IMG/VR virus record: IMGVR_UViG_3300035188_001379
Span: 120,466 to 184,465 of that record
DNA length: 64,000 bases
Reading direction: 5' to 3' (one strand)
DNA from: a virus
Both the position numbers and the translations under genes were made by a program. Positions 48,403 to 64,000 of the stretch are shown piece after piece. Each line of letters opens with the position of its first letter. Within the stretch, counting starts at the first letter, position 1. Below the pieces are notes generated by a model, which was given only the letters and a program-made list of their open reading frames with translations, made no database searches and was not told where the DNA came from.

Positions 48403-48496
48403 ATTTTGTGTTGATGGCTAACTGAGCTTTTATACTAGCTAATTTAAGGTTTAGGGTACAGAAAATTAATTTTTAGCCTCTAAACATTAAGTCTTG

Positions 48497-48946
48497 CTAA
48501 ATTGGAAAGCTATGATCTGTAGATAGCTTAGGTTGAAATTTACGTAAGATTATGTTAAACTTTTCTGCATTTTTAAGCGCTTCCTGATCTCTCTCGTACA
48601 AAAAGTCGTAGACTATTTGTTTAACACCGTAAGCCGCACAAAGGACTAGGCAGTTGGTGCAAGGAAGTAGGGTGACGTATAGATAATACGGCTCACCAGG
48701 TTTTGTGTATTTGAGGCAGTTGCACTCAGCATGAATAACGTAGGGCCTACGAGCGTCTCTATCGCTCCAGTCAATCTCTACTCCTGAAGGGGCTCCGTTG
48801 TAGCCAGTGCTTATGATCGAATGATCCTCTCTAAAAGCTGCAGCTCCTACGATAACATACGGATCAGGAGATCTTTCCGCAGCTGCTCTAGCAATAAGCA
48901 TTCCGTACTCATCCCAGCAAGGACGAGTTCTTTCTGTACTGTTCAT
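48497..48946 (-). CDS. dCMP deaminase
   Basis: IVGAA, TGYNG, HAECN, PCTNC. Confidence 0.88.
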   Translation of the reverse strand: MNSTERTRPCWDEYGMLIARAAAERSPDPYVIVGAAAFREDHSIISTGYNGAPSGVEIDWSDRDARRPYVIHAECNCLKYTKPGEPYYLYVTLLPCTNCLVLCAAYGVKQIVYDFLYERDQEALKNAEKFNIILRKFQPKLSTDHSFPI

Positions 48947-48950
48947 CCAA

Positions 48951-49139
48951 CTACGCTAGCGCTTCGTAAGCCGCCTTGCAAAGGTTTTTAAGCATAGTTT
49001 CTATCTCTTCGTCTTGCAGTCTTTCGAAGTTTCTGAAGATAGGTTTGTCTCCGTCAAAATCCGCTTTGAGCACAAAAACACCATCATAAACGATAGTTAT
49101 CTGGTCTGTGTCAGCATCATAGTCGAACTCAAATCTCAT
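48951..49139 (-). CDS. Small acidic hypothetical protein
   Basis: MRFEFDYDAD... start at 49139; the longer track start overlaps the divergent gene. Confidence 0.55.
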   Translation of the reverse strand: MRFEFDYDADTDQITIVYDGVFVLKADFDGDKPIFRNFERLQDEEIETMLKNLCKAAYEALA

Positions 49140-49182
49140 TGCGGTATTGTTTTTTAAATTACTATTCATTACTATAGCGGAT

Positions 49183-49875
49183 ATGATTATCACTAAACAA
49201 GAAAAAATAAATAAGCTTAAAGAATATTTCAAAAATATGAAGCTGGATGCTTCTGTAATGGGAAGAACGATGGGCACTACTACAGGTTTTGTGACCACTC
49301 AAATAATTCTCGATTCTTCTAAAAAGCTTCTGGATGTGTTTAGTAGACAGGTTGCACCTGACGACCGCGATAACGTGGTTTTTTCAAAATTTTTAGGCCC
49401 TGAAGACTATATGAAAGAGCATATAGAGCACGACGCAGGGAAGCTGCAGTTTAAAGCTAAGAACAAGCTTAGACAGAAAAGAAACCTGAGCTGGCTTCAC
49501 GCAGGCTTCTTTACTCCGCAAGTCAAAAGTGTGTTTGTAGGTAATGCGTTAGCTCAGAATATTGAAGGTGTGAATCCGATGGAGCAGTACATGCTAGCAC
49601 ATAAAGTTACCAAGATGGGAGAAGGAGGCATCGGAAGTTCTGAGGCTATTCCCGACAGTTCTCGAGAAGTCAACGAAAGCCAGTTTGGACTACTCGATCC
49701 TATTCAAACGGTAGAGGCTACCACCATCGGTGTAGTAAACTTTTTTGTTAATAATCTACGTAAAGGAGACGATGGAAAGCTGTATAGGCAGGTAATTGAA
49801 AACGCTACAGGTAAAACTGTATGGATTGACCATCAAGAGTTCCTCAGCTCTACGATTGACGTGCCTGAGCATTAA
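49183..49875 (+). CDS. rpoB: RNA polymerase beta subunit, middle fragment
   Basis: PDDRDNV; NPMEQYMLAHKVTKMGEGG...REVNESQFGLLDPIQTVEATTIG parallels the RpoB NPL..THKRR..LGPGG...RDVH..YG..CPIETPEG.NIG region. Confidence 0.82.
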   Translation: MIITKQEKINKLKEYFKNMKLDASVMGRTMGTTTGFVTTQIILDSSKKLLDVFSRQVAPDDRDNVVFSKFLGPEDYMKEHIEHDAGKLQFKAKNKLRQKRNLSWLHAGFFTPQVKSVFVGNALAQNIEGVNPMEQYMLAHKVTKMGEGGIGSSEAIPDSSREVNESQFGLLDPIQTVEATTIGVVNFFVNNLRKGDDGKLYRQVIENATGKTVWIDHQEFLSSTIDVPEH

Positions 49876-50744
49876 GGAGCAGGGTCAGGATCAGGTTGTG
49901 GATCAGGATCAGGTTCCGGATCAGGCGGCGGAGCATCTGTCGGATATATATGACACACCCCGTCCGCGACGAATCCAATGAAATAGCCGTCTCCCTGAGA
50001 GCTTATTTGAGGACTATAACGGCTATAATCGTCCTGATCGCATGGTTCGGTTATAATATAGCTAGCTGTATCCTCAGAGGGGATGGTGCTAAAGTTGTAT
50101 TTAAATTTGCAGCTAGTCGGAGAGTCCAAAGTAGGGTCAAGAGGCAGAATGTCTACATTATCCCAAATTATAGTTTCGTCTGTATAATCTTGTGTAAAAG
50201 TCCCTAGCAGCTGGCCTCCATTATAAGCTGTAAAAGAAAACGATTGAGCTGCTTGAGAGGCCGCGGCAGCGCCTCCATCACCACCTCCATCACCACCTCC
50301 ATCACCACCTCCATCAGGAGGAATAGGGTCCATCTTAATACCTCCACTAACATAATACTCTGTCCCGGCTGAGTCGTACACTGTACCATTGTATGGCCAT
50401 TGCAAACTGCTATCCATATAGTACATAAAGTACGAGTAACACTCATGATAGAGGTATACTTGATCTGTGAGATCAGCATCTGTGTAGTATATCTCAAAAC
50501 AACTGCCTCCTCCTCCTCTGCTTCGATAAACCTCTCCCTCGCCGGTACATATATCCATATAGCTCGACCACCCTGTACGGCCTATAGGGCCTAGATTCCA
50601 GTCTTCTATGTCCTCTTCTGTGGCGTTAGAGTTCCATGTGACCTGTGCGTCGCTTAAAGAAAAAGTTCTAAGTGTAAACACACATTTTTTATCTTTAATG
50701 GCCTCGCACCCGTTACAAAAACAACAAGAGCTTAATCTATACAT
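49872..50744 (-). CDS. Cys/Tyr-rich protein with GGDG and DP low-complexity repeats
   Basis: 12-nt tandem repeat at about 50273-50316; DPxP tail. Confidence 0.6.
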   Translation of the reverse strand: MYRLSSCCFCNGCEAIKDKKCVFTLRTFSLSDAQVTWNSNATEEDIEDWNLGPIGRTGWSSYMDICTGEGEVYRSRGGGGSCFEIYYTDADLTDQVYLYHECYSYFMYYMDSSLQWPYNGTVYDSAGTEYYVSGGIKMDPIPPDGGGDGGGDGGGDGGAAAASQAAQSFSFTAYNGGQLLGTFTQDYTDETIIWDNVDILPLDPTLDSPTSCKFKYNFSTIPSEDTASYIITEPCDQDDYSRYSPQISSQGDGYFIGFVADGVCHIYPTDAPPPDPEPDPDPQPDPDPAP

Positions 50745-50764
50745 ACTATTTATACAATTTATGC

Positions 50765-53152
50765 TTAGGAGCTAGTGACATACTCAGGAGGAGTCATAAA
50801 CACCATGGCAGTCATTTTTTTGCCTTCGTTGTCGCACAGCGTTATGGTCTGCCAGCCTGCCGTTTTTCCGCCTAGTGCGTTAGGAGAAAGAGTAAAGCTG
50901 CCTCCGCTACCAGTCATGCTAATACTTCCTCCGTTGATCGTCGTGGTTCCCTCACTGCACACTATATGAATATTTTCACCGATCTTTACAGTACACAGCC
51001 CATCACCTACAGTTAGTCCTGACCTAGCTGTAATGTTTTCCATCGTCATCTCTCCTGAGATGAAGCTGAAGCTATAGGCGCCTCCGCCACAATGAGGAAG
51101 CAGCTCTGAGGTGTATATGGTTTTCATATACATAGTGCTGCTGCACATTTCTATGGTAGTATGGCACTCAGGCGAGCAGCAAGGATAAGGAGGAGTAATA
51201 AGGCGTACCTGTAACTGATCTAAAATCAATGAAGAAGGCGCTTCTGAGCACGATGTAGTTAACTCCCCTTGAAGCTCTAGGCCTCCTGCTGAATTGGTGC
51301 CTAGGTACATGCCTGCTACTTGCGCGGCGATGTTGACATCTATCGTTCCTCCAAGGCTGAGACGGGAATCTGCTGTTTGAGTTATATAAAGACCTGAAAC
51401 TTTAATCTCAGATGCAGCTTCGCAAGGAGGTAGGTTAATGGTCGTATTTAAAGGAGACATCTCGAGAGCGAACTCTGCCCCGCATCCCTCATTAGTACTG
51501 GTGACTGACAGCGTGCTTGTAAGATCCAAAGTACCTACTTGACGACTTCCTTGCGTGAACGTAACATTTGCAGAGTTGTATGGTGAGTTTACATTGAATG
51601 AAAACTCCTTACAAGCGTCTAGCTCGATATTTCCGTTAAGCTCAAAGCCACAACCTTCGTTAGTTGGAAGCATACTCAGCTCTAGCTTAGGTGGATTGGT
51701 CCCCGATGTGGTGATGTTTACGTCACTTGTGATTTCCTTACAGGCATCTACAGCGATGTTTCCGTTAAGTTCAAACCCACAGCCATCATCTGCCATCTGA
51801 AAAGATAAATCTACTTCAGGAGGATTAGTTCCTGAGGTAGTGATGTTAACTGCTGCTGAGATTTCTTTACAAGCGTCTAGCTCGATATTTCCGTTAAGCT
51901 CAAACCCACAACCATCGTTGGTTGGAACCATGCTCAGCTCTAGCTTAGGTGGATTGGTCCCCGATGTAGTGATGTTTACGTCACTTGTGATTTCTACACA
52001 GGCATCCAACGCAATGTTTCCGTAAAGCTCAAACCCACAACCATCATCTGACGGCATCATACTCAAATCTACTTCAGGAGGATTAGTTCCTGAGGTAGTG
52101 ATGTTGACCGAGCTTGAGATTTGTTTGCAGGCGTCTAGAGCAATATTTCCGTTAAGCTCAAACCCACAACCATCGTTGGTTGGAGTCATATTCAACGCTA
52201 AAGTAGGAGGGTTAGTACCTGAGGTAGTGATGTTGACAGCGCTTGTGATTTCTACACAGGCATCCAACGCAATATTTCCGTAAAGTTCAAATCCACAACC
52301 ATTGTCGGTTGGGAGCATACTTAAATCTACTTCAGGAGGATTAGTTCCTGAGGTAGTGATGTTGACGGATGCTTTGATTTCTGGGCAGGCATCTAGCTCG
52401 ATGTTTCCATTAAGTTCAAATCCACAACCATCGTCGGTTGGGGTCATATTCAATGCTAGCTTAGGAGGATTATTTCCTGAGGTAGTGATGTTGACGCCTG
52501 CTGAGATTTCTGGGCAGGCAGTTATTTCTACGTCTCCAACTAAAACAAACCCGCAATTATCATCTACACGCTCTAGGTTCCAATCGCTTCTTTTAACAGC
52601 GTTACCGGACACGCTTATCTGCGCAGAAGAAGTCAGCTCAACGCAAGCGTCTACAGTTATACTGCCTGTCAGCTCGAGAGCACAATCAGGAGCGCCGCTA
52701 TTTGAAAACGACAAGCTGACGCCAGGTTGTGCCTTACCTAGGCCATCTATCTCAACGCTTGTAGTGATTTCCTCGCAAAATCCAGAAGGCATTGCGATTT
52801 CTCCGCCGATAGTTATACCGCAAGCAGGAGGACCATCAGAGTCAAGCGTAAGTGTGCCGCTAAGCGGAGCTTTTATAACAAAAGTTGAGTTGGCTAGAAA
52901 GTCTACACAGCCTCCAGGAACAATAGGAGGATTATAGACAGGGGGAACAGGAGTAACATCAGGAAAAGTAAAAACGCAAACCTCTTCAACCTTTTTAAAA
53001 GATACAGGTGTGAGAGTTAGATTTGTGAGAGGTGGTAGTACACAAGCCTCAGGCTTCTCTTCTTGCGCATTATAAGCAGGAAGATACTCAGCATAGTACT
53101 TATACTGAGTATCTCCTAAGTGGATTTTAGTTGGATCGATCTTTAAAGCCAT
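50765..53152 (-). CDS. Fibre-like protein with tandem 43-aa Cys-paired repeats
   Basis: Seven well-conserved copies of CxEIxxxVNITTSGTNPP...DGCGFELNGNIxLDA plus degenerate flanking copies. Confidence 0.75.
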   Translation of the reverse strand: MALKIDPTKIHLGDTQYKYYAEYLPAYNAQEEKPEACVLPPLTNLTLTPVSFKKVEEVCVFTFPDVTPVPPVYNPPIVPGGCVDFLANSTFVIKAPLSGTLTLDSDGPPACGITIGGEIAMPSGFCEEITTSVEIDGLGKAQPGVSLSFSNSGAPDCALELTGSITVDACVELTSSAQISVSGNAVKRSDWNLERVDDNCGFVLVGDVEITACPEISAGVNITTSGNNPPKLALNMTPTDDGCGFELNGNIELDACPEIKASVNITTSGTNPPEVDLSMLPTDNGCGFELYGNIALDACVEITSAVNITTSGTNPPTLALNMTPTNDGCGFELNGNIALDACKQISSSVNITTSGTNPPEVDLSMMPSDDGCGFELYGNIALDACVEITSDVNITTSGTNPPKLELSMVPTNDGCGFELNGNIELDACKEISAAVNITTSGTNPPEVDLSFQMADDGCGFELNGNIAVDACKEITSDVNITTSGTNPPKLELSMLPTNEGCGFELNGNIELDACKEFSFNVNSPYNSANVTFTQGSRQVGTLDLTSTLSVTSTNEGCGAEFALEMSPLNTTINLPPCEAASEIKVSGLYITQTADSRLSLGGTIDVNIAAQVAGMYLGTNSAGGLELQGELTTSCSEAPSSLILDQLQVRLITPPYPCCSPECHTTIEMCSSTMYMKTIYTSELLPHCGGGAYSFSFISGEMTMENITARSGLTVGDGLCTVKIGENIHIVCSEGTTTINGGSISMTGSGGSFTLSPNALGGKTAGWQTITLCDNEGKKMTAMVFMTPPEYVTSS
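51614..52516 (-). repeat. Seven 129-nt coding tandem repeats with alternating A/B units
   Basis: Odd units (K/T)L(A/E)L, even units EVDLS; 7 x 129 = 903 nt. Confidence 0.85.
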
Positions 53153-53490
53153 TAAAGCATCTTATTAAACACGAGGTAAAAAAACAATATTAAAGCAGGC
53201 GCACATAAGGATTCAAAAGAGCCTAGAGAGGCGACTACAGCTACACCTAGCCAAAAGCTTACGCAAACTGGGCAGGTGAGCAGCCTTACTAGAAATTTAT
53301 CATGATAGTACTCTCTTAGGAATGCTGCATAATTTCCAGGATACTCGGCCTGCTTTAATTGTTTGTACTCTGCAAATTTATTACCTAGCGAAAGCCTTAG
53401 AAGATTCAAATACTCAAAAAGAGCATCAGTATCTAGCCAGACCAGTAAAAAATAACTAGCAACTGCAGATAGTACGATGACTTGAAGCAT
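53152..53490 (-). CDS. Small membrane protein with CPxC motif (DUF1360-like)
   Basis: RLLTCPVCVSFWLG between hydrophobic segments (family name recalled, not searched). Confidence 0.6.
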   Translation of the reverse strand: MLQVIVLSAVASYFLLVWLDTDALFEYLNLLRLSLGNKFAEYKQLKQAEYPGNYAAFLREYYHDKFLVRLLTCPVCVSFWLGVAVVASLGSFESLCAPALILFFYLVFNKML

Positions 53491-53493
53491 GTG

Positions 53494-53733
53494 TTATTTG
53501 CTTAGTTCAATAATCTTGGCCTTCAAATCGGCAAGCAAGTTTTTTTGCGCGATAGAGGCGATGCGCATGTTTTGCAATTGAGCAATCTGCTCGCCAAGCT
53601 TCTTGATATTGTTCTCTTGCTCTGTGACATTGATGGTTGCCTGCTTTAAGCCATCCTCAATCAACAAGAGAGAGATGTGTGTGGACTCAGGATTTTCTTC
53701 GGTCACGACGGGAAGTTCGACTCGGTCTTTCAT
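53494..53733 (-). CDS. Small coiled-coil protein
   Basis: 79-aa heptad-rich ORF. Confidence 0.6.
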   Translation of the reverse strand: MKDRVELPVVTEENPESTHISLLLIEDGLKQATINVTEQENNIKKLGEQIAQLQNMRIASIAQKNLLADLKAKIIELSK

Positions 53734-53745
53734 GTGTTTTGTTGG

Positions 53746-53919
53746 TTATTCTGCGATTGAGTTGTTTTCTGTCAGGAGTTCTTTGATTTCTGCTTGGATT
53801 CTTTTGATGTTTTCGTTGTACCCTTTTACCATATCTTTTTTATCACGTTTAGCTTCTTCAAGTTCTACAACTAGGTTGTAGATCTTTTCTTCTTTAGTTG
53901 CATGGGTATCGTTACTCAT
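53746..53919 (-). CDS. Small coiled-coil protein (57 aa, not in ORF track)
   Basis: Manual translation MSNDTHATKEEKIYNLVVELEEAKRDKK...NNSIAE*. Confidence 0.55.
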   Translation of the reverse strand: MSNDTHATKEEKIYNLVVELEEAKRDKKDMVKGYNENIKRIQAEIKELLTENNSIAE

Positions 53920-54024
53920 AGAGGATCAAATTAACGAATAGCCTGAGAGTGTGCAAGCGATTTTGCAAAAAAAAAGACGCACCAGCGAACCAGTGCGTCT
54001 TTTTGGTTGGAGGTTAAGGGTAGC

Positions 54025-54741
54025 TTACGCGAGTGCGGCAAGCTGTGCAGGAGACAGGCTTGCTTTTTGCCCTGTAGTGAGTACAGCTTTTTGAGCTGTG
54101 GTAAACGCAGAAAGCTGCGATACAGACAACGAAGCGAGCTGAGCTGCTGTAATCTGCTGCACATCAGCAATTTCAAGTGCGCGAATTTGCTTGTTGGTGA
54201 GGGAAGCAAAGTCAGCAACTTCGATCGCCGGAATCTGAGTAGTGGTCAGGTTTGCAATCTGTGTAGTGTTCAGCGTAGATACCTGCTGCGGAGTGAGTGC
54301 GGCGATCTGCGGATTAGTCAATGCGGCGATATTGCCGATAGTGACTTGCAAGAGTTGACCTTCACCAGACTCAAGTTCTTGATCTGCGCTACCATATTCA
54401 GCAGAACCATAAGCGTTAGGTCCTACACGCCCAGAGCCACGAACATACTCAATTACATAGCTGATCTTAGCTGGTGCAGTTACTCCAGAAAGCGTCAAGG
54501 GAACAGAGGTGTCTGTGCCAGGATATACGTCGAGCGTAATGACAGGATCTGTGTGTGCTACGATAGTAGCACGGATAATGTCTCTGGCAGGTACATCTGC
54601 GAAAGAAAGGGTGTCAAGCAACAGGTAAGAAGATGCTTCGACAGAGCCGTAACTCACTTGAAGCTTTTCATACCTAGAGCTCTTAAGACCTCCGACGTCG
54701 TTAGTTTCTACTGCGATTTTTCTGATACGTTTAGTTGACAT
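54025..54741 (-). CDS. Protein with C-terminal LTxxQIxAL helical repeats
   Basis: ALTNPQIAALTPQQVSTLNTTQIANLTTTQI... Confidence 0.7.
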   Translation of the reverse strand: MSTKRIRKIAVETNDVGGLKSSRYEKLQVSYGSVEASSYLLLDTLSFADVPARDIIRATIVAHTDPVITLDVYPGTDTSVPLTLSGVTAPAKISYVIEYVRGSGRVGPNAYGSAEYGSADQELESGEGQLLQVTIGNIAALTNPQIAALTPQQVSTLNTTQIANLTTTQIPAIEVADFASLTNKQIRALEIADVQQITAAQLASLSVSQLSAFTTAQKAVLTTGQKASLSPAQLAALA

Positions 54742-54882
54742 GTTGTTTTGTGTTTTTAGTTGTTGATGATAGCAACAGACTTTCAGGCAACAGGAACCAA
54801 AGGTTCCCAGAGGATCGCTGATCTACTCCATTGCTATAATAATTATCTATGTTGCTAGATAGATAATCAAGATAAATTACCA

Positions 54883-55545
54883 CTAGTTGTCGCCAACAAG
54901 CAACTCATATAATTTGTCTATCTCTGTTCCTGTATAACTTGCTCTGTTGGCGTTGTATATCGCTTCTCCCCAGGCTTCACGCATAGCGGAATCTGCTATT
55001 CCCATATCTTTTAAAATGCCGTAAAGTTTGATCTGAGAGTTTCTAATCATCATTATGAACAGCTGCTTATCAGGCAGGAACAAGATTCTTGAGGTAGTTC
55101 CTGTACGTGCTTCAGGATTTATGTGCGCCTCAGGAATACCGTCCTGCCTAATCCTAGAGTATATGCCCGGCAACAATCTTTGCTGATTCACTCCCTCATA
55201 CTCAGAGCCGTTGTATATAACAGTGTTGTGAGGAGTTACATAAGGAATCTGAGCGATTGTAGTGCTCTTACTTTCGATGATCTTTCCACTAGGCTTATGT
55301 ATCAGGTTAATCGTACCTTTCAAAGGCACAGTAAGATCTTTCTTTTCAAGAATAGCCTGCTTCTGCTGAGAAACAGGAATACGTGAAGTATCTACCTTTA
55401 GATCTTTTGCTTGCAGCTTAAAATCCTGCGTTTCAATTGCTCCTAACTTTTTATTAAACGAGTTTACCGCAGTATCAAACAGATTTTGCCTGAGCTTGTC
55501 AGGATCAAAAAAAGCACGTGTATTTTTAGGAGGATTTGAAGCCAT
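54883..55545 (-). CDS. rpoB: RNA polymerase beta subunit, N-terminal fragment
   Basis: IAQIPYVTPHNTVIYNGSEYEGVNQQRLLPGIY parallels RpoB IP.MT..GTF.INGTERV.VSQL.RSPGV. Confidence 0.75.
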   Translation of the reverse strand: MASNPPKNTRAFFDPDKLRQNLFDTAVNSFNKKLGAIETQDFKLQAKDLKVDTSRIPVSQQKQAILEKKDLTVPLKGTINLIHKPSGKIIESKSTTIAQIPYVTPHNTVIYNGSEYEGVNQQRLLPGIYSRIRQDGIPEAHINPEARTGTTSRILFLPDKQLFIMMIRNSQIKLYGILKDMGIADSAMREAWGEAIYNANRASYTGTEIDKLYELLVGDN

Positions 55546-55551
55546 GTTATG

Positions 55552-56154
55552 CTAGGACTCTAGTAGCTTTTTTAAGTAGGCTTTATTAGCTTCGTCTTTC
55601 AAAAGATTTTCTAGTTCTGGGTATTTTGCAACGAGCTCAAGCTCTTTTGGTTGTTTTGCGCTAGCTGCGCGAGCAGGGTCATTTATAGCAAAACCGAGAG
55701 CATTAGTTTTAGTTACTTGATTGAGAACACTGTTAGCTATCCTTCGATTGACTGCATCTCCGAAGCTGTCAACGAGATCAGCTTGTTTTATAGGACTTGC
55801 ATACGCTCTGGGGCTACTAATAGAGCTCACTGTACCTGGGTCAGGTGTCAGAAAGGAAGGTTTTTCGTGAGATGGAAGATATGTTCTTCTTGCTGCGTTT
55901 CCTTTGTTACTTTTTCCGCCAGACATACCCATAAGCGCTGCTAGTCCAATAGGGGCAACAGCCTTAGCGATTTCGCCAATTTCTCCAAGCCCGTTAGATG
56001 CGCTTCCTAGCAAGCTTGAGCCTCCGGCCAGAATTCCTCCTCCAACAAGAGCAGGAGCCACAACCTTCTTGGCAACAGCCCCGTAGTTTATGCTTCCGCT
56101 TTTTTCAAGCTCTTCACGGAATCCTTCAGTTAGTTTTTCCCAGTCAAGATTCAT
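55552..56154 (-). CDS. K-x-A family protein with Gly-rich hydrophobic segments
   Basis: WEKLTEGFREELEKSG-SINYGAVAKK; IKQA-DLVD. Confidence 0.65.
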   Translation of the reverse strand: MNLDWEKLTEGFREELEKSGSINYGAVAKKVVAPALVGGGILAGGSSLLGSASNGLGEIGEIAKAVAPIGLAALMGMSGGKSNKGNAARRTYLPSHEKPSFLTPDPGTVSSISSPRAYASPIKQADLVDSFGDAVNRRIANSVLNQVTKTNALGFAINDPARAASAKQPKELELVAKYPELENLLKDEANKAYLKKLLES

Positions 56155-56158
56155 AGGA

Positions 56159-56893
56159 TTAAGCGTAAGGTTCAAGTTCAACACGAGTAGGCAGCGCCTC
56201 TTCAGTATAAGATTCAGGACGTTCCCTCATCTTCTTGCGTAGCATATAGGTAAGATACGCGGCTCCTGCGCCTGTACTCAGAAGCCCTGATGCGGCAGTA
56301 TCTATTGCGGGCTGAAATGGCTTTTTCGCCACGCCCCCAAGTTCTCCTAAGAGTCTACGAATGCTTCCTTCTTCAATTGCTGTATCGTTGGGATCTTCTG
56401 CTTCTTTTTCAAACATAAGCTGATAGGCTACCCCGTTACAGAATGCATCCACGCAAGGAGTTTCCTCGCTTGAGGAATCAGAGCCTGTTTTGATCTGGCT
56501 CAAAACGTCGATATACTCTTTCTGGGCTTGGGCTAGCTCTTTCTGAATTCTTTTCTTTTCGGCAAAATAGAAATCTTTCTTAGCCTGTCCAAAACCTTGC
56601 TGACTTCCTAGTAAAAGCTGAATAGGTACGTTTTGTGTTTTTACAGCTCTCGAAAATATGCCAGGAGCATCAAGGTCTTCAGCAACCTTTGCGGAAGGTA
56701 GCAAGGAGGCGGGAAGAGGAATTCTAAGAATGTTAGAGTCTTCTTCCTCAAGCCTGGCCTGCTCGAGGCGTTTTCTAAGCTCGTTTTCTTTAGCAAGTTG
56801 AATTGCGCTGAACAAACTGCGCCCAAAGAGATTCGAGGCTTCCTGAGACTCTTCAGGAGAGAGAGGTATAGGTGTAGAAGATTCTTTTAGCAT
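56159..56893 (-). CDS. K-x-A family protein
   Basis: AKVA-EDL; FEKEA-EDP; hydrophobic segment near the C-terminus. Confidence 0.65.
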   Translation of the reverse strand: MLKESSTPIPLSPEESQEASNLFGRSLFSAIQLAKENELRKRLEQARLEEEDSNILRIPLPASLLPSAKVAEDLDAPGIFSRAVKTQNVPIQLLLGSQQGFGQAKKDFYFAEKKRIQKELAQAQKEYIDVLSQIKTGSDSSSEETPCVDAFCNGVAYQLMFEKEAEDPNDTAIEEGSIRRLLGELGGVAKKPFQPAIDTAASGLLSTGAGAAYLTYMLRKKMRERPESYTEEALPTRVELEPYA

Positions 56894-56895
56894 AA

Positions 56896-57285
56896 TTATT
56901 CTTTTTCTTTTTTACTTCCGTAGATGATAAACACCCTGAAGCTTCCTTGTGGAGTCCATGTATCTTTCCAGAGTGAGATCAGATATTTTTTGTTGTTCAT
57001 CAGCTCGTTGAGCATGTCCTGGTCGCGCTGTTGTTCAGGATCGAGAATGATGTTCTTGAAGACATAGTCTGTCATGTCTCCTGCAGAAGTTTTGCGTTTA
57101 ATTCCTTTTGCATGCTCGAAAGCATCGATAACCGTTTCAGGATCAAAGCCTTTATTGGTTACTTCGTTGCGAATGTTCCTGGCTTTAGAAGACGTGCGCA
57201 AATCCGCGGCACTAGAACCAAAGTCGAAGTGCTCGGTGGCTGTATTTTTTCCGTTGTCTGATAGCCTAAATGAGTCCATGTTCAC
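56896..57285 (-). CDS. Hypothetical protein
   Basis: 129-aa ORF in operon; alternative ATG at 57279. Confidence 0.6.
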   Translation of the reverse strand: MNMDSFRLSDNGKNTATEHFDFGSSAADLRTSSKARNIRNEVTNKGFDPETVIDAFEHAKGIKRKTSAGDMTDYVFKNIILDPEQQRDQDMLNELMNNKKYLISLWKDTWTPQGSFRVFIIYGSKKEKE

Positions 57286-57610
57286 GTTTCAGATTGTTTG
57301 TGATTTGTCTGACTAGCTTGATTTTGTCTCTTTCGCGTTGAAGGGCCTTATTCACAGAGTCGACAGAGCTGTCCATCTCATCCATAGTAAGCCCTGCCAT
57401 AGCTCCGCCTGCGAGAGAGCCTTTGATTGCGAGCTCTGGAAGACTAGCAAGGCTTAAGCTGGGGGCAAGGTTTTCTGCAACTTTCAATACTCCTTCACCT
57501 GTATTCAAGTTCTGAAGAGCATTCTCAAAAACTTTCAAAGAGGACCCTTGTTTTTGTAGCTCGAGAGAAAGCTCTGCCTTGATTGCCTGGGCTGTTTTTG
57601 TCATTTCCAT
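57266..57610 (-). CDS. K-x-A family small protein
   Basis: MTKTA-Q; LKVA-ENL; GSLAGGAMAG. Confidence 0.6.
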   Translation of the reverse strand: MEMTKTAQAIKAELSLELQKQGSSLKVFENALQNLNTGEGVLKVAENLAPSLSLASLPELAIKGSLAGGAMAGLTMDEMDSSVDSVNKALQRERDKIKLVRQITNNLKREHGLI

Positions 57611-57615
57611 AAAAG

Positions 57616-58005
57616 TTACATGCGAATTCTTGAGCGTCCTGTATCAGGATCGTAAGTTGTGAATTTATTTTCTTTAAACTGATTGTACATTATATTACCA
57701 ATACCAAACCCTGCCAAGCTCATTAGTGTTTGTGCGGGTTTGCTCATGCCTAGGTATGATGCGGTGGCTTTTGTGAGTGCAGCTCCTGCAGCTCCGACAA
57801 CAAGATGGTCTACCCATTCCGGACTATCTAGCATTGTGAGTAGCGAATTCTTTTTATTAACATCTATACCATGATCGTGCATCACGACATGCTTGAAAAC
57901 ATTTGGAGTGACCTTTGTGGGGTCATAGTATTTTGTGGCGTATGGAGGAGCATCTGCAATGCTGAGCATCGAGTTTGTGTTAAATGGAGATGCGGCTGAG
58001 TACAT
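57616..58005 (-). CDS. Small protein with Gly/Ala hydrophobic hairpin
   Basis: LVVGAAGAAL...LMSLAGFGIG. Confidence 0.6.
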   Translation of the reverse strand: MYSAASPFNTNSMLSIADAPPYATKYYDPTKVTPNVFKHVVMHDHGIDVNKKNSLLTMLDSPEWVDHLVVGAAGAALTKATASYLGMSKPAQTLMSLAGFGIGNIMYNQFKENKFTTYDPDTGRSRIRM

Positions 58006-58008
58006 AGG

Positions 58009-58875
58009 CTATTGAGTTTTGATCGCCATGCTTCCTAGCGTAGCTGCAGCTGAAGGAAGTATAGAGTATATTTCGTGTGATGTGCGAGAGGCAGGATTCA
58101 TTGCACGCTCGGTTACTCTGTCTGGATTGATATGGTCGAGTACTTTAGACAAGCCTTTGCTCGCAGCATAGCCTCCTACGAGACTAGTAATTGGTCTGCT
58201 TGCGTGAGAGGCCACAAAGTTAGAGCCAAAGTCGCTTACTCCGTGAAGTACAGACTTTAAAGCAGAAGAGGCCTCCTCTGCATCCATCTCAAAGGCCTGC
58301 TTCATGTGATCGTTTCCTCCCTCAAGCAGACTTGAGGTGTTAATTACTGCTGAGGGGCTCTCTGTGGTTGCCGACTCGCTCAGATCACCCATTTCAGGCT
58401 TGAGATTTTCTTCCATAGCTTTGAGCTTTGCTACGAACTTTTTGCTAGGAGAGTATCTCCAGTTTTTACCTTCCTCATGCTGAAGCATGAAGGTAGGATT
58501 TTTTCTGCCGTCAGCAAGAGTCATATAGATGTTGTCAGGACTGCTTCTATGAATCTGCGCTGTACCTTTACCTATAGCGTCTTTGTCGAAATCGAGAATG
58601 CTATCCTCGCCCAGTCTACTTACCTTAGCGTCTTCGCTAGGATATTCTTCTCCTAGTCCTCCGAAGCTATAAACAAGGTTGCCGTCGCTGAGTTTTAGTC
58701 CGTCGCGAGTACGCACATACTTCCATTTTGCCTGACCTGCCAGTGTGGGTAGAATGTTCTCGTTAACAGGCATGCTAGAGATGTCCAGAGCCTCTTTAGT
58801 AAGGGCTCTCGCACTCTTCTCTAGTTCTTCCTGCACTCCAAGACAGAAGGCAGGCATATAGACACGCATTACCAT
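58009..58875 (-). CDS. K-x-A family protein
   Basis: AFCLGVQEELEKSA-RALTKEA-LD; MKQA-FE. Confidence 0.65.
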   Translation of the reverse strand: MVMRVYMPAFCLGVQEELEKSARALTKEALDISSMPVNENILPTLAGQAKWKYVRTRDGLKLSDGNLVYSFGGLGEEYPSEDAKVSRLGEDSILDFDKDAIGKGTAQIHRSSPDNIYMTLADGRKNPTFMLQHEEGKNWRYSPSKKFVAKLKAMEENLKPEMGDLSESATTESPSAVINTSSLLEGGNDHMKQAFEMDAEEASSALKSVLHGVSDFGSNFVASHASRPITSLVGGYAASKGLSKVLDHINPDRVTERAMNPASRTSHEIYSILPSAAATLGSMAIKTQ

Positions 58876-58876
58876 A

Positions 58877-60568
58877 TTACGGTTGAGGTTGTTGAGGTGG
58901 CGGAAGGCTCGCAGAATAGCTCTGAGGCGTCTCGGGTGCCCCTACAAAAGGATTCTGTCTGTTATAGGCTGCAGCAAAAGGATTCATGCTGTTTGCTCCT
59001 GAGCCGTACGGATCTTTCCACTTGTTCATCATCTGAGGAAGATAGTTGTAGCCTGCGATACCTCCTAGGATAGGAGCAATGAGTCCTCCTGCCCCTTCAA
59101 GACCCATTTCTCTAGAGATCAGCATAGCCAGCAATGCTCCTCCCACTGCTCCTGTCGCCTGGTTGCTCATGAATGGAACAACTCTATGGCGATCAGCCTG
59201 CAGACCTGAAGCGTCTTGCGCTGGACTTGCTCCTCCTACTCCTAGTCCGTTTAGTGCTTTTTTGCCTCCATACAAACCTAGTCCTGTTGCGGCTAGCGCA
59301 CCAGCAGGCCCAAAGGCTTTATACGCCCCTAGGGCTCCTGCACCTGCAAGAGGACCAAGCGGGCCTAGGATAGGAGAGGCTAAAGAACCTAGCATGCCTC
59401 CAGTAAACGCACCTTTCACTCCTTCCCATGGAGCAAATCTGAACATTCCCTTTCCTGTGCTGCGTGTGCCTGTAGCCACATGAGGAGCTGCCTGGTCTGC
59501 CCAGCTGGGAGCATTTTCTACTCCTGTGTGTCCTATGTCTGCGGCATGACCTTTCATCTTTTCTAGATGGTCAACAAGCCCCTGATCTGCCGGATGTGTT
59601 TTGCCTGGAGTGGTAGAGTGGATGTTTGTGACTCTGGAAGCCACACCCTTACCTACACCTGATCTTGCAGCAAGAGGATCGAATTTTCCTGCGCCAATGT
59701 CTTTGAGTGCTTGCGCTGCGTCTGTTTTGGCTGAGCCAGTACCGAACTCTGCAGCATGAAGGGTGTCTAGATAGGTTCTGTCTAGAATTCCCTGGTTTTC
59801 TTTAGCAAATCCTTCAGTCAGCTGAGATGCAGCGTCAGATTTCATCTTTTTGAGCGCGCTGAAGGCTTTGCTGTTTTGCTTATAGAGATCAGGATTGCTG
59901 GCCATCAGATCCTCGGCAAGCCCGTAAGATCGCGCTCCCTTGAGTTTGTCGAGCCCTTCTCCATGAAGCACTTTACCTGCGTCGTCGACGAATGCTCCAA
60001 ATTGCTGTCCTTTGGCGATAGCTTTCTCTGCGGCAGGAGCTGACCTTGCATTCCTAAATACTCCCTTGGCCACGTCGCCTAGAGCTTTGTAGTTTCCTCC
60101 TCTAAAGAGTTGCATACCTAGATTTCCTAGATTGGCCAATCCTTTGAGGTTGACGGCTTCTTTTGTCATTCCGTCGATGAAAGCGTCGTCTGCTCCTTCT
60201 TTTCTGAGCTCGTCAACAATTCCTTCCCATACACGGACCGCCTCGATTTGTGCTGCCTTCTCGAAGCATTCTGCACTCTTTGTGAAAGCGTCGATCTCGG
60301 TCTCTGAGTATGATGCACTCTCGCAGAGGCTGGCCATTTTTTTCAGCTCTCGATTCAGATACGCTAGATAGTTTGATTCCTCTCTTTGCTTCTCGAGAGC
60401 ATTCTTCTCTAGTGTCTCCTCTAGCTCCCGCACTATTCCCTCGTAGAAAGGGTTCTGGGCACCCGCCTGCTTCTGAATCTCTAGGAACAGAGAGTCTAGA
60501 GTCTTCTCGTTGCTCGTCTGCTCTCCCAAGAGGGCTTTTTTCGCTAGTGGATGGTTCGTTCTGTTCAT
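58877..60568 (-). CDS. K-x-A-rich protein with Gly-rich hydrophobic C-terminal region
   Basis: Several KxA sites in the first 140 aa (KQA, KNA, KMA, KSA, KAA, KEA-VNL); Gly-zipper-like segments. Confidence 0.7.
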   Translation of the reverse strand: MNRTNHPLAKKALLGEQTSNEKTLDSLFLEIQKQAGAQNPFYEGIVRELEETLEKNALEKQREESNYLAYLNRELKKMASLCESASYSETEIDAFTKSAECFEKAAQIEAVRVWEGIVDELRKEGADDAFIDGMTKEAVNLKGLANLGNLGMQLFRGGNYKALGDVAKGVFRNARSAPAAEKAIAKGQQFGAFVDDAGKVLHGEGLDKLKGARSYGLAEDLMASNPDLYKQNSKAFSALKKMKSDAASQLTEGFAKENQGILDRTYLDTLHAAEFGTGSAKTDAAQALKDIGAGKFDPLAARSGVGKGVASRVTNIHSTTPGKTHPADQGLVDHLEKMKGHAADIGHTGVENAPSWADQAAPHVATGTRSTGKGMFRFAPWEGVKGAFTGGMLGSLASPILGPLGPLAGAGALGAYKAFGPAGALAATGLGLYGGKKALNGLGVGGASPAQDASGLQADRHRVVPFMSNQATGAVGGALLAMLISREMGLEGAGGLIAPILGGIAGYNYLPQMMNKWKDPYGSGANSMNPFAAAYNRQNPFVGAPETPQSYSASLPPPQQPQP

Positions 60569-61775
60569 TTGAGAGCGTAATTACTTTTTTTATTGTATTT
60601 GACTTCTTCTTTTTTTGCAAGAGTGGATGCATGTATAATCCTGCTTCGTCTCTAGAAGGAATGTGACTCTTGCCGAACCTCTGAATTCCTGTATTCAGAC
60701 TGTCACCTCTGCACAGCCATATAAGGTTGTGGTAGCATTCTACAGTAGCCTTGTTGAGCTCTCTGAGATTGTCGCTTCTCACTTCGCGCAGATACTGAGA
60801 GGCTAGAGAGTAGGCATTGAAGAGATAGTCTACAGCCTTCTCTATGCTAGCGTATGTTTTTCCAGCCTTGAACTCGAGGTTTGAGTCTCTGAGTATTTCT
60901 AGTTTGCGATCAGAGTAGTTCTTGTTGAACTCTTCCTCGATCATCCTGAGTTTCTCTTTGTGTTCCGCATAGTTCTGCTTCTTTTCTTTAGGTATGAAGA
61001 AGAGCAGGTGTGTATGAGGATCGTATAGGCCTTTCTCTATGCTAGAGACGCTGATTTCATGACTTCTCATATAGGAAGGAAGCAACTTCTTCTTGTGGCA
61101 CAATCTGGAGAGCTCTAGAGCATTAGTCTTGAAGAAGCTTTGAATCATCTCTTTGCAGGCCTGTGGATCTTGAAGGCTTACGCTTTTGTCTAGAGTGATC
61201 ACAGCCTGATAGGCAACGAATCCAGCCTCAAACAGTCTTTCTACAGAGTAGCTCTTCTTAAACTGCGCTGCAAACCTACGGCATGTTTTAGCGTCTACAG
61301 CTCGAGTATCCAAACATTCGCTAGAGTATGCTCCAGCTCTAGAGAGTAGGTTAGAGCGAACACTGTCTTTACCGTTGTTAACAATGTTGGTCATATCACA
61401 ACCAATGTTAAGTAGTAGATGAGCCTCTAGGTCTTTGCGCTTTAGGCCAAATCTGTTTGCATTACCAGATAGGTCAGACCCTAGGAGATCTTCTAGCGTG
61501 AGTTTGTCTTCTCTAGAGAGCTTGTCCCAATAGGTGATATAGTTGTCGATGTTACACCAGTTCAGATCGTACTTATGAGCTACATCACCTTCAGGCTCGA
61601 TAAATGCACCAGAAGAGGATAGGCTAGGATGAGAAGATCTGAATCGCTCCACATCGTACGAGCAAGGAGGAGCTATCCTAGCGAACTTGTATGATCCCTC
61701 GTATACGTGAGAGGAGTCAGGAGAGTCAGAGTCAGAGTCAGTGAGAAACTCAGTGAGAGAGACAGCCGAGGGCAT
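60213..61775 (-). CDS. Rolling-circle Rep-like HUH endonuclease domain protein
   Basis: AVITLD (motif I-like), SYMRSHEIS...YDPHTHLL (HUH), KAVDYLF (motif III-like). The last about 118 codons overlap the next gene. Confidence 0.55.
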   Translation of the reverse strand: MPSAVSLTEFLTDSDSDSPDSSHVYEGSYKFARIAPPCSYDVERFRSSHPSLSSSGAFIEPEGDVAHKYDLNWCNIDNYITYWDKLSREDKLTLEDLLGSDLSGNANRFGLKRKDLEAHLLLNIGCDMTNIVNNGKDSVRSNLLSRAGAYSSECLDTRAVDAKTCRRFAAQFKKSYSVERLFEAGFVAYQAVITLDKSVSLQDPQACKEMIQSFFKTNALELSRLCHKKKLLPSYMRSHEISVSSIEKGLYDPHTHLLFFIPKEKKQNYAEHKEKLRMIEEEFNKNYSDRKLEILRDSNLEFKAGKTYASIEKAVDYLFNAYSLASQYLREVRSDNLRELNKATVECYHNLIWLCRGDSLNTGIQRFGKSHIPSRDEAGLYMHPLLQKKKKSNTIKKVITLSNEQNEPSTSEKSPLGRADEQREDSRLSVPRDSEAGGCPEPFLRGNSAGARGDTREECSREAKRGIKLSSVSESRAEKNGQPLRECIILRDRDRRFHKECRMLREGSTNRGGPCMGRNC

Positions 61776-61915
61776 AGTGGGAGAATCAGTGATATCGTAC
61801 AGCTAGTCAAGCGTAGCGTAGGCTAAGTGAGGGAGAATCTAACACTACTACTATCTCTATAGGTACCAGCCACTCCTGCTTGCCTATTCTCAGGTTTTAA
61901 GATATACTTTCCAGT

Positions 61916-62239
61916 ATGAAATCCACCTGCAGGTCTATCAGTCAGATAAAGACCGTAACCATACGGGGCAAACGCTACCGCTTTGTGGTGAAGAAGCTCA
62001 ACAAGGCCCGAGGGCTCACCGAGCATCCAGACACGAAAAACAAGACCGTGTACATTGACGAGCGTGAGCACGGGAAAGACCTGCTGGCTACACTTATCGA
62101 CGAGTTCATTCATTGCGCTATCTGGGAAATCCGGAATGATGTAGTTGATCAGATTTCTGACGACATTGCAGATGCCTTATGGAGATGCGGTCTTAGATTT
62201 ACTGACGAAATTGAGGAGCCTACAGATACTCCCGATTGA
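61916..62239 (+). CDS. Small zincin-fold-like protein with degenerate DExxH motif
   Basis: LATLIDEFIHC where related small phage proteins typically have LIHExxH. Confidence 0.5.
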   Translation: MKSTCRSISQIKTVTIRGKRYRFVVKKLNKARGLTEHPDTKNKTVYIDEREHGKDLLATLIDEFIHCAIWEIRNDVVDQISDDIADALWRCGLRFTDEIEEPTDTPD

Positions 62240-62270
62240 TATTTGCTCTAGAGTGCGCTAATATCTTTCT

Positions 62271-64000
62271 ATGTCTGGTAAAAATTATAAGTACGCTCTT
62301 GTTAACGGTAAGCTGCAGCGAGTATCTGCTTCGCAGAAATCGAAGTATAGTATTCCGGATCCTTCCAACTTCTTCAGTCCTGTTACCAATCTGATTCCTA
62401 GCCTCAGTTCTGTTTCCGGGGCACGTGTACTTATTGGAGATAAGTCTTCGCTTCAAGCGATGACCCTTGTCAACCGCGAAGCCCCTCTAGTGCAGTCTGC
62501 TCCAAAAGGAGCCAAGACGAGTTTTGTTAAAGAGTTTGGAAAGCTGGTAAGTATCGTCTCTAAAGCTGACGGGAAAGTGAGCGAAATCAGCGACGACCAC
62601 ATCATCGTCAAAGACAAGTTTGGCAAAGAGCATACCCACGATCTGTACTCAAACTATATTGTAGGTCGTGAAAGCTACATTCATCATACCCCTAAAGTTG
62701 CAGTAGGAGACAAGGTGACTGTTGGGCAGCTCCTAGCCACATCCAACTATTCAGACAATAAAGGTACACTGGCCCTTGGGATGAACCTTAAGACTGCTAT
62801 CATGCCGTACAGGTCTTTGAACTTTGAAGACTCTTTGGCTATCTCAGAAACAGCCGCCAAAAAACTCGAGGGAGAGCAATTGATTCCTGTCCGTATGGAA
62901 ATTGCTCGGGGATTATCTACAGACAAAGACAAATTCATTTCTCTATTTCCGAACAAATATTACAATTCGCAGCTGGGCAATATCGCAGCTAATGGGGTAG
63001 TTAAGCGTGGAACTGTACTCAAGCATGGTGACCCTGTGATTCTAGCTTTCCAGCCAAAGACTCTAAAGTCCCTTGATATTCAGCTAGGAAAATTGTCGAA
63101 GGTTATCCGTAATGCCTTTTCTGATATTTCTGTGCCCTGGTCCTACGAGTACGATGGAGAAGTCACTGATGTTGCAGTCACAAGCAAGCTGGTCTCTGTT
63201 ACCGTAAAAACCAAAAGACCGATGAGCTTTGGTGACAAGCTCAACATGCCCTTCGGAGCTAAGGGAGTTGTGCATATCGTACCAGACACGCAAATGCCTC
63301 AAGACTCTGACGGTAAGCCTGTGGATGTTCTACTCAATACTATGAGCATTACTTCTCGTGTGGCTCCTGGCCTGGTTAACACTATAGGTCTTGGCAAGCT
63401 CGCCGAAAAGAAAGGTAAGAGTTTGAATGTGACAGGCTTTGTCGAAGGGTCTGCAGTCCAGAAAGTGATAGACGTTTTGCGTAAACACGGAGTTTCAGAG
63501 ACAGAAAAACTCTATGATCCTACATCAGGCAAACACATAGATGTTCTCACCGGCCCGCTCTACTTCAATAGACTGCATCACATTGCAGAAGACAAAATAT
63601 CGTCCAGGTCGGCAGCTACAACGTACGATATTAACATGCAGCCCAGTAAAGCTGGTTCTGACGAGAAAGCTAAACGACTAGGTAATTTGGCCACGACAGT
63701 AGCCTTGTCGAATGATGCAAAAGCAGTATTGCGGGATGTGGCTACTGTTAGAGCTACAAAAAATGATGAATTCTGGACCTCATTAAAACTAGGACACACG
63801 CCTCCTCCTCCTAAAGTACCGTTTATTTTTAATAAGTTCATTAGCCATCTTCAAGGAGCTGGAGTAAATGTAGTGCAGCAAGGATCTAAATTTCACATAA
63901 AGCCTCAAACAGATAAAGATATTGTCGCACTCTCTCACGGCGAAATTAAAGAGCCTCTCAGCTACAAACTAAAGAAGGATAACCTTATCCCAGAAGACGG
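62271..64000 (+). CDS. rpoB: RNA polymerase beta C-terminal fragment running in-frame into a beta-prime N-terminal-like sequence (truncated by window edge; not in ORF track)
   Basis: Manual translation from ATG 62271: TNLIPSL...EAPLVQS; ALGMNLKTAIMPYRSLNFED; GDKLNMPFGAKG; DGKPVDVLLN; RLHHIAEDKISSRS; then LSHGEIKEP...PEDG. Confidence 0.88.
   Translation, partial: MSGKNYKYALVNGKLQRVSASQKSKYSIPDPSNFFSPVTNLIPSLSSVSGARVLIGDKSSLQAMTLVNREAPLVQSAPKGAKTSFVKEFGKLVSIVSKADGKVSEISDDHIIVKDKFGKEHTHDLYSNYIVGRESYIHHTPKVAVGDKVTVGQLLATSNYSDNKGTLALGMNLKTAIMPYRSLNFEDSLAISETAAKKLEGEQLIPVRMEIARGLSTDKDKFISLFPNKYYNSQLGNIAANGVVKRGTVLKHGDPVILAFQPKTLKSLDIQLGKLSKVIRNAFSDISVPWSYEYDGEVTDVAVTSKLVSVTVKTKRPMSFGDKLNMPFGAKGVVHIVPDTQMPQDSDGKPVDVLLNTMSITSRVAPGLVNTIGLGKLAEKKGKSLNVTGFVEGSAVQKVIDVLRKHGVSETEKLYDPTSGKHIDVLTGPLYFNRLHHIAEDKISSRSAATTYDINMQPSKAGSDEKAKRLGNLATTVALSNDAKAVLRDVATVRATKNDEFWTSLKLGHTPPPPKVPFIFNKFISHLQGAGVNVVQQGSKFHIKPQTDKDIVALSHGEIKEPLSYKLKKDNLIPED

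Follow-up and report, generated by a model that had tools for sequence, protein, structure and literature searches.

The 64-kb stretch analyzed here, which we term the window (64,000 nucleotides, positions 120,466 to 184,465 of IMG/VR virus record IMGVR_UViG_3300035188_001379), is the end of a 184,465-bp record and encodes the β subunit of a multi-subunit RNA polymerase (RNAP) in scattered pieces. The subunit is found neither as one polypeptide encoded by one gene, nor within a single gene of about 1,450-1,530 amino acids (aa) joining β to the N-terminal part of β′: instead, it is spread over three open reading frames (ORFs) on two strands. We number these pieces 1, 2 and 3 by the order of their modules along β, and write the junctions between them as 1/2 and 2/3. 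The ORF listing and translation place all three where the original prediction, made from the nucleotide letters and a list of ORFs, had put them (Table 1). Piece 1 lies within a minus-strand operon and starts 6 nt past the stop of the upstream ORF, to which its translation is predicted to be coupled. Piece 2 is a lone plus-strand gene surrounded by a minus-strand block, and its fork domain includes the rifampicin-pocket region and the GEGGI loop. Piece 3 contains the hybrid-binding domain, a double-psi β-barrel (DPBB) with both catalytic lysines, followed by the flap and then by the N-terminus of β′. Pieces 2 and 3 are, as predicted, collinear on the plus strand: they are 12.4 kb apart, and everything between them, piece 1 included, is on the minus strand.

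Piece 3 runs off the end of the window. The first 207 bases of the contig are duplicated at its end (window 63794-64000, genome bases 1-207); hence the record, which is classed 'linear', closes on itself, and piece 3 crosses the junction. Its frame resumes at contig base 2 for 490 codons (genome bases 2-1474), giving 998 aa in total, and ends just past the DSDGD motif of β′. A PF00623 match at genome 857-1270 in the same frame agrees with the continuous frame in supporting the predicted β/β′ fusion. After closure the unique length is 184,258 bp, and the genome is estimated to be 94% complete. It has one PF00562 (Rpb2_6) match and one PF00623 (Rpb1_2) region, and pieces 1 and 2 each match it once. 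An intact rpoB elsewhere, which the original prediction had named as speaking against its reading, was not found in this estimated 94% of the genome, nor was a second rpoB or rpoC, and the genome search recovered no α subunit.

Table 1. Polymerase genes and associated features; positions are those of the window unless another record is named
Feature	Position	Strand	Size	Content
Piece 1	54883..55545	(-)	220 aa	RNAP β N-terminal module: protrusion and initial part (about two thirds) of the lobe
Piece 2	49183..49875	(+)	230 aa	β middle module: lobe end, return to protrusion, fork domain
Piece 3, part in window	62271..64000	(+)	first 576 of 998 codons	β C-terminal half running into the β′ N-terminus with no stop
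β′ C	L003:2997-4847		616 aa	Rpb1_5, E 1e-13; homolog of Arash Gp216, E 2e-60
Sigma70_r3 protein	genome 37417-38049 (L026:418-1050)		210 aa	Sigma70_r3, E 1e-8; C-terminal helix-turn-helix; outside the window
Intervening block	49872..62113	(-)	about 17 ORFs	Includes piece 1; functions mostly unassigned
Putative sigma-70-like promoter of piece 2	49147..49175	(+)		TTGTTT, 17-nt spacer, TACTAT, 7 nt to ATG
Putative sigma-70-like promoter of piece 3	62236..62264	(+)		TTGATA, 17-nt spacer, TAATAT, 6 nt to ATG

The three pieces tile a fused polymerase chain

The nearest named relative is Salmonella phage Arash (OQ632216), at 26-32% identity across all pieces. Its polymerase comprises Gp206 (1,525 aa, annotated 'beta subunit') and Gp216 (606 aa) (PMC10585845). 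In blastp searches piece 1 matches Gp206 residues 36-222 (E 3e-18), piece 2 residues 231-469 (E 2e-23) and full-length piece 3 residues 473-1517 (E 2e-160). In Gp206 numbering the cuts thus fall at about 222/231 and 469/473, and the pieces tile the fused chain without loss or overlap. The same is seen in the 121-125 homologs with both of the respective parts on one chain, where the median spacer between the piece-like parts is 2 residues at 1/2 and 1 at 2/3; the claim that the pieces abut with little gap or overlap is thereby upheld.

Alignment to cellular enzymes, which the original prediction had proposed as a check, places the pieces in the same order. Piece 1 is matched by phmmer to cyanobacterial β 50-196, piece 2 aligns with Escherichia coli β 403-577, and piece 3 with Clostridioides difficile β 635-1176, with the GDK/GAKG motifs in register. 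The segment FGDKLNMPFGAKGVV of piece 3 is in register with bacterial GDK..GNKG, and its D322, K323 and K331 are invariant, so the catalytic lysines are retained as had been noted. Piece 2 likewise has invariant residues (G146, G148, D172, G183) in common with the fused enzymes. The family profile matches C. difficile β 43-241 and 395-1180 and Bacillus subtilis β′ 148-540. Pfam RNA_pol_Rpb2_6 (hybrid-binding) is found on piece 3 at E 1.3e-44 and RNA_pol_Rpb2_3 (fork) on piece 2 at E 1e-5, above the cut-off. The E-values of these matches, together with their conservation in other contigs, exclude a chance origin.

Conservation of the layout and selection on the pieces

Six further IMG/VR contigs (L004-L009) retain the order and orientation 2(+), 1(-), 3(+) with syntenic intervening genes; in these, piece 1 is 60-75% and piece 2 74-89% identical to the window proteins. 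A distant contig (G002), with 40% identity in piece 1 and 54% in piece 3, also keeps the order 2(+), 1(-), 3(+), at spacings of 6.3 and 10 kb. The comparison of synteny that the original prediction had called for thus yields the same arrangement in related contigs. Outside this circle, megablast of 49000-64000 against phage records gave no match, and related-locus searches with the representatives P0036 and P0012 gave no confirmed relative. In a freshwater metagenome of a different study (X2) there are contigs, ≥99% identical, that run across the edge of piece 2 on its 3′ side, across both edges of piece 1 and across the start of piece 3, without alternative joints. An assembly error at the junctions, a second finding that would have spoken against the prediction, is excluded by these contigs and by the conserved layout.

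The ORFs are intact in all seven genomes (7/7; 217-221 codons for piece 1 and 230 for piece 2). Synonymous sites are saturated, nonsynonymous divergence (dN) is 0.07-0.38, and where synonymous divergence (dS) was computable, dN/dS is 0.03-0.13 for piece 1 and 0.03-0.14 for piece 2. The division into three pieces on two strands is real and conserved, and purifying selection acts on it.

Position of the cuts in the predicted structure

The junctions were mapped on an AlphaFold2 model of a fused homolog, P0082 (mean predicted local distance difference test, pLDDT, 84.7; predicted template modeling score, pTM, 0.82). Model residues 2-899 align with Xanthomonas β (6j9e_C; Z 28.8) and residues 130-288 with the E. 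coli lobe (residues 151-443 of 7egs_A; Z 16.1); the match to the B1-B2 domains of Mycobacterium tuberculosis has a Z of 15.0. Junction 1/2 corresponds to model residues 226-229, in or bordering a loop (227-232) that connects helices H214-226 and H233-246. Because the E. coli lobe aligns to model residues 130-288, the model puts this junction inside the β lobe. By sequence it corresponds to about E. coli β 380-385, in the lobe and past SI1, and here the family profile skips C. difficile β 241-395. Junction 2/3, at model 457/458, is in a loop of nine residues (454-462) that joins two strands. Of the jumbo-phage enzymes, the AR9 non-virion chain 7s00_C aligns from its residue 1 to model residues 444-906 (Z 22.2); for the phiKZ non-virion chain 7ogp_C the alignment begins at its residue 9 and covers model residues 486-901 (Z 19.6). 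Junction 2/3 is accordingly modeled after the fork and within about 14 residues of the start of the AR9 non-virion C-β alignment, an approximate figure read from aligned ranges only. This nearness to a jumbo-phage β split weakens any claim of a wholly distinct breakpoint.

A family of fused and split polymerases

A phmmer scan of 1.84 billion cluster representatives with piece 2 (E ≤ 1e-10) recovered 820 matching representatives, on the best 150 of which all three pieces were mapped. Among these 150, parts of all three pieces occur on one chain in 101; ten are of a 1+2/ form, which ends right after the piece-2 region; 12 are of a /2+3 form, which starts about 20-50 residues before the piece-2 region and continues into piece 3; and ten are stand-alone piece-2 proteins. 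As judged from these domain layouts, the fusion of β to the N-terminus of β′ is the norm of the family and no peculiarity of this phage; Arash Gp206, Vibrio phage D69 and most of the 150 representatives have it too. The family fits the description of the mReC, Caudovirales that encode a multi-subunit RNAP (a set of 97; Weinheimer & Aylward 2020, PMC7481178), with which we compared it by description: these are large aquatic phages that have not been cultured, and their β and β′, which are bacterial-like and branch deeply, have been used as phylogenetic markers (PMC7481178).

In the tree of the piece-2 region, the window clade is made up of 12 stand-alone rows and is monophyletic (Shimodaira-Hasegawa-like approximate likelihood-ratio test, SH-aLRT, 100). 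The 1+2/ forms make a separate clade (SH-aLRT 96), most /2+3 forms a third (99), and the fused forms are scattered over the tree. At loci of the 1+2/3 clade, piece 3 is encoded 4-6 kb downstream behind accessory genes (a 2-oxoglutarate-Fe oxygenase and DUF6321) or more than 8-10 kb off; in a complete 176-kb genome of the 1/2+3 clade, piece 1 is about 15 kb upstream. At the loci examined, both two-piece forms are true splits with dispersed pieces. Judged from the tree and the mapped chains, both breakpoints recur in other clades, and the window clade has both. As to the 'distinct split architecture' of the original prediction, the breakpoints are not unique: each of these recurs in another clade, and 2/3 is near the AR9 split.

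The splits are probably derived from a fused gene: fission is the more parsimonious direction because bacterial β is unsplit and fused forms dominate. The 1+2/3 clade looks like an intermediate.

Several members of the family carry additional domains in the same regions. In four proteins of the 1+2/3 clade (P0027, P0029, P0035, P0080) an inorganic pyrophosphatase domain (InPase, PF18823; E 1e-45 to 1e-57) is inserted in the β lobe; it sits within 260-1,020 extra residues located exactly at junction 1/2. A pyrophosphatase inside an RNAP subunit would be unusual. Inteins of fused relatives lie near 2/3 and inside piece 2. In close relatives (P0007, P0010, P0011) the GxGGI/S loop of piece 2 is interrupted by an intein-like insert of 140-340 aa, which starts C..TEV, ends SGN/S and is missing from the window gene. 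Fused homologs also have recurrent 150-500-aa inserts at piece-3 positions of about 140, 324, 364, 463, 775 and 914; those that were checked, which are only some of them, gave LAGLIDADG/intein-splicing matches. By these alignments both junctions tolerate large insertions in fused relatives.

Remaining polymerase genes, neighborhood and putative promoters

The β′ C gene is found 1.5 kb downstream of piece 3, followed by a Gp218-like gene and then by capsid and other structural genes. The Sigma70_r3 protein is homologous to Arash Gp10 and is a candidate for the specificity factor that the phage polymerase uses. Separately, the rifampicin-pocket positions of piece 2 (residues 125-145) differ from E. 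coli β by D516E, H526L, R529K and S531T, and the enzyme is probably insensitive to rifampicin.

The intervening block encodes, in addition to piece 1, an ALTTAQ-repeat protein, a DUF1360 protein and a variable 795-aa protein, and its gene order is conserved in the contigs L004-L009. No homing endonuclease, transposase or intron was recognized in it with PHROGs and Pfam, which gave almost no function for its products. Its sole genes that are poorly conserved among relatives are the 290-aa and 795-aa ORFs at 49872-53152 (-), beside piece 2; together with the ALTTAQ-repeat protein (54025-54741) they may be variable proteins of the host-range type.

Elsewhere in the window, a 1,308-aa P-loop protein (9246-13172, plus strand) includes a DUF6321 segment (residues about 837-911) that is 63-76% identical to ORFs located between RNAP pieces in the distant 1+2/3 clade (L015:7356-8216 and L016:15154-16377). 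This identity is far above the 37% of the polymerase, for which reason we suspect that the DUF6321 module may have been exchanged horizontally.

Pieces 2 and 3 are each preceded by a putative promoter, that of piece 3 sitting where the plus-strand gene and the minus-strand block diverge. The pattern TTGnnT-N17-TAnTAT-N7-ATG is kept upstream of piece 2 in L004, L005, L006 and L009, and TTGAyA-N17-TAAyAT-N6-ATG upstream of piece 3 in L004, L006 and L009; L008 has a variant of the latter. The ATG lies 6-7 nt past the -10 box and no Shine-Dalgarno sequence precedes either piece, which suggests that both are translated from leaderless mRNAs. These promoters are consensus matches whose support is their conservation in relatives: TAnTAT-N5-8-ATG is not enriched before long ORFs genome-wide (9/33 against a background of 23%), and a scan for consensus promoters and terminators did not rise above shuffled sequence.

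Proposed assembly of the enzyme and alternative explanations

We propose that the window holds three of the four genes of a single mReC/Arash-type RNAP, whose long gene has been cut twice at surface loops and whose pieces assemble non-covalently; we consider this reading very probable. The enzyme would be a slimmed, bacterial-like β/β′ core without α. In relatives, a gene of about 1,500 aa encodes β and the N-terminal half of β′, with both catalytic barrels, and a second gene encodes β′ C. In the window clade, one clean cut would lie inside the β lobe (1/2) and the other just past the fork domain (2/3). Accessory DNA would have been inserted at these permissive sites, followed by at least two rearrangements, such that the pieces became separated and piece 1 was inverted into a neighboring operon. 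Starting from 1-2-3, the present order would take DNA inserted at each of the junctions; no fewer than two rearrangements would be needed as well, such as a pair of nested inversions. An origin by insertion plus inversions would fit the intermediates in sister clades. The polypeptides of 220, 230 and 998 aa and β′ C (616 aa) would then fold together non-covalently into one core, comparable to fragments of bacterial, archaeal and phiKZ/AR9 β subunits. In a co-fold of piece 2 and piece 3 residues 1-545 with piece 1 as partner the score was 0.87, as against 0.74 for a control with chain 2 replaced, a pair of scores that weighs on neither side of the binding question.

Several points weigh against this proposal. 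A Pfam search of piece 1 gave no match, and what connects it with RpoB is only the fused homologs and PDB matches that are weak (E about 2e-3). The junctions were placed on the model of P0082, which is about 33% identical to the pieces, and not on the window's own proteins. Some short database proteins tallied as split may be truncated at contig ends. Finally, the piece-2 tree is unrooted and built on 223 columns, and the fused-to-split direction leans on parsimony and on the unsplit bacterial β.

A different product would result if the pieces were joined after transcription or translation, by RNA trans-splicing or split inteins, or if the DNA were rearranged in infection by programmed inversion. 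Inteins are common in the family, close relatives carry one inside piece 2, and the cyanobacterial DnaE offers a precedent of a split-intein gene encoded on opposite strands. However, set against the fused homologs, the pieces have 1-8 residues to spare per end, which leaves no space for an intein N-half (about 100 aa) or C-half (about 35 aa); Rfam, including group I and II introns, gave no match in 47000-64000 at E ≤ 0.1; the inverted repeats around piece 2 are short pairs at chance level only; contigs of four sequencing runs included no joined form; and rebuilding the order 1-2-3 takes at least two rearrangements. We hold any such joining to be highly improbable and, because there is no room for split inteins, no intron signal and no inversion repeats, infer that the separate polypeptides assemble at the protein level. 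Another explanation accepts three separate proteins and denies that all are obligate: piece 1, piece 2 or both could be optional and separately regulated parts, used at a certain stage of infection or in a packaged enzyme only, or could have acquired a new role. In bacterial RNAP the lobe is a regulatory surface, and the three genes lie in different transcription contexts, piece 1 in a minus-strand operon and pieces 2 and 3 each behind its own putative promoter. Yet piece 2 holds the fork domain and the rifampicin-pocket region lining the active-site cleft, with invariant residues common to the fused enzymes; piece 3 alone is without these elements, of which the genome has no other copy; and pieces 1 and 2 are both strongly constrained. 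This explanation thus appears improbable, if less so than joining.

The explanation to which we give least weight of all is that the arrangement is an assembly artefact or that the small ORFs are the decaying remnants of a replaced polymerase gene. The sequence does come from the assembly of a metagenome, and the contig stops before piece 3 does; the run-off, however, is accounted for by the 207-bp terminal overlap, eight further contigs from other samples share the layout, and the contigs of the different study cross the gene borders. Decay is at odds with ORFs that are intact despite saturated synonymous change and with the lack of any other rpoB or rpoC in the genome. The conserved layout, the selection data and the different-study contigs refute both versions of this explanation.

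Relation to known split and fused polymerases

Split, dispersed RNAP genes are already known from phiKZ and AR9 (PMC7598289, PMC7824862), as are fused enzymes of the Arash type. As in Arash and the Vibrio phages D69, D148 and D181, β is fused in frame to the N-terminus of β′, and the chain ends past the DxDGD barrel. Also shared with Arash are a separate β′ C gene downstream, at the head of the structural genes, and a gene for a Gp10-like sigma factor. In contrast, β and the β′ N-terminal part are one gene in Arash and in D69 (1,527 aa), whereas here they take up three genes, on both strands. By mass spectrometry, the Arash virion contains Gp206 and Gp216 among its most abundant proteins, and Gp10 also occurs in virions (PMC10585845). 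By analogy with Arash, the polymerase of the window phage may likewise be packaged in the virion.

In phiKZ and AR9, β and β′ are encoded as several dispersed genes whose products assemble without α or ω (PMC7598289; PDB 7OGP, 7S00), and jumbo-phage enzymes break β at further points as well (PMC7824862). The window enzyme resembles these in that β′ is cut after the catalytic barrel, the pieces are dispersed, and a break in β separates the fork region from the hybrid-binding domain (C-β starts at model residues 444 and 486, as compared with junction 457/458; the correspondence is approximate). It differs in that phiKZ and AR9 have two complete polymerase sets, virion and non-virion, and the window genome one; that they have no β/β′ fusion and no sigma-family factor, whereas the window phage has both the fusion and the Sigma70_r3 protein; and that an unsplit, ancestor-like form persists in the sister lineages of the window phage. 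The phiKZ and AR9 sequences are too distant from the window pieces for phmmer matches. Given the single polymerase set, the presence of β C and β′ N on one chain and the sigma-like gene, the gene content assigns the enzyme to the mReC/Arash family and not to the phiKZ type.

Breaks in β are also seen in cellular enzymes. The archaeal RpoB is split into B'' and B', with the fork region on one side of the break and the hybrid-binding domain on the other; these are adjacent genes in one operon, whereas the window pieces are dispersed on two strands. Fragments of E. coli β have reportedly been reassembled in vitro by Severinov and co-workers in the 1990s. In the archaeal and E. coli cases, β cut at surface sites still forms an active enzyme. 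The split sites of phiKZ-type β, according to a jumbo-phage review, do not match the archaeal one.

Our literature search, whose coverage was incomplete, found no published description of the three-piece layout, of the fusion architecture of the family or of its recurrent fission. In the Arash paper, Gp206 is named simply 'beta subunit' and the fusion is not discussed (PMC10585845). In the text of the mReC paper, the words 'fused', 'fusion', 'split' and 'fragmented' refer only to crAssphage and to phage sequences of Viral RefSeq that are fragmented (PMC7481178).

Implications for the evolution of phage polymerases

How scattered multi-piece phage polymerases originated, and how their pieces recognize each other without α or ω, are stated as open questions for phiKZ and AR9 in the literature on these enzymes (PMC7598289). 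The present family has, side by side, an unsplit gene, two-piece forms of two kinds and a three-piece form, and inteins or foreign domains are found at or near the same junctions; natural variants can therefore show in what order the events took place and which sites are permissive. The fragmentation could conceivably be adaptive rather than neutral: on this reading, the same two permissive sites would have been broken in at least three clades of a polymerase associated with the virion, each time independently, and the pieces would have been placed under separate promoters; we rate this as unlikely. If it were so, assembly of the core might be timed or titrated, or the enzyme might be packed and ejected as smaller subunits, and the family would be a living series from fused to two-piece to three-piece β that shows the origin of the multi-piece polymerases of the phiKZ type. 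With 820 cluster representatives the family is large, and it has hardly been studied. It marks two loops of β at which the chain can be cut or a domain inserted, and the isolates Arash and Vibrio phages D69, D148 and D181 offer the fused form for comparison with the split one.

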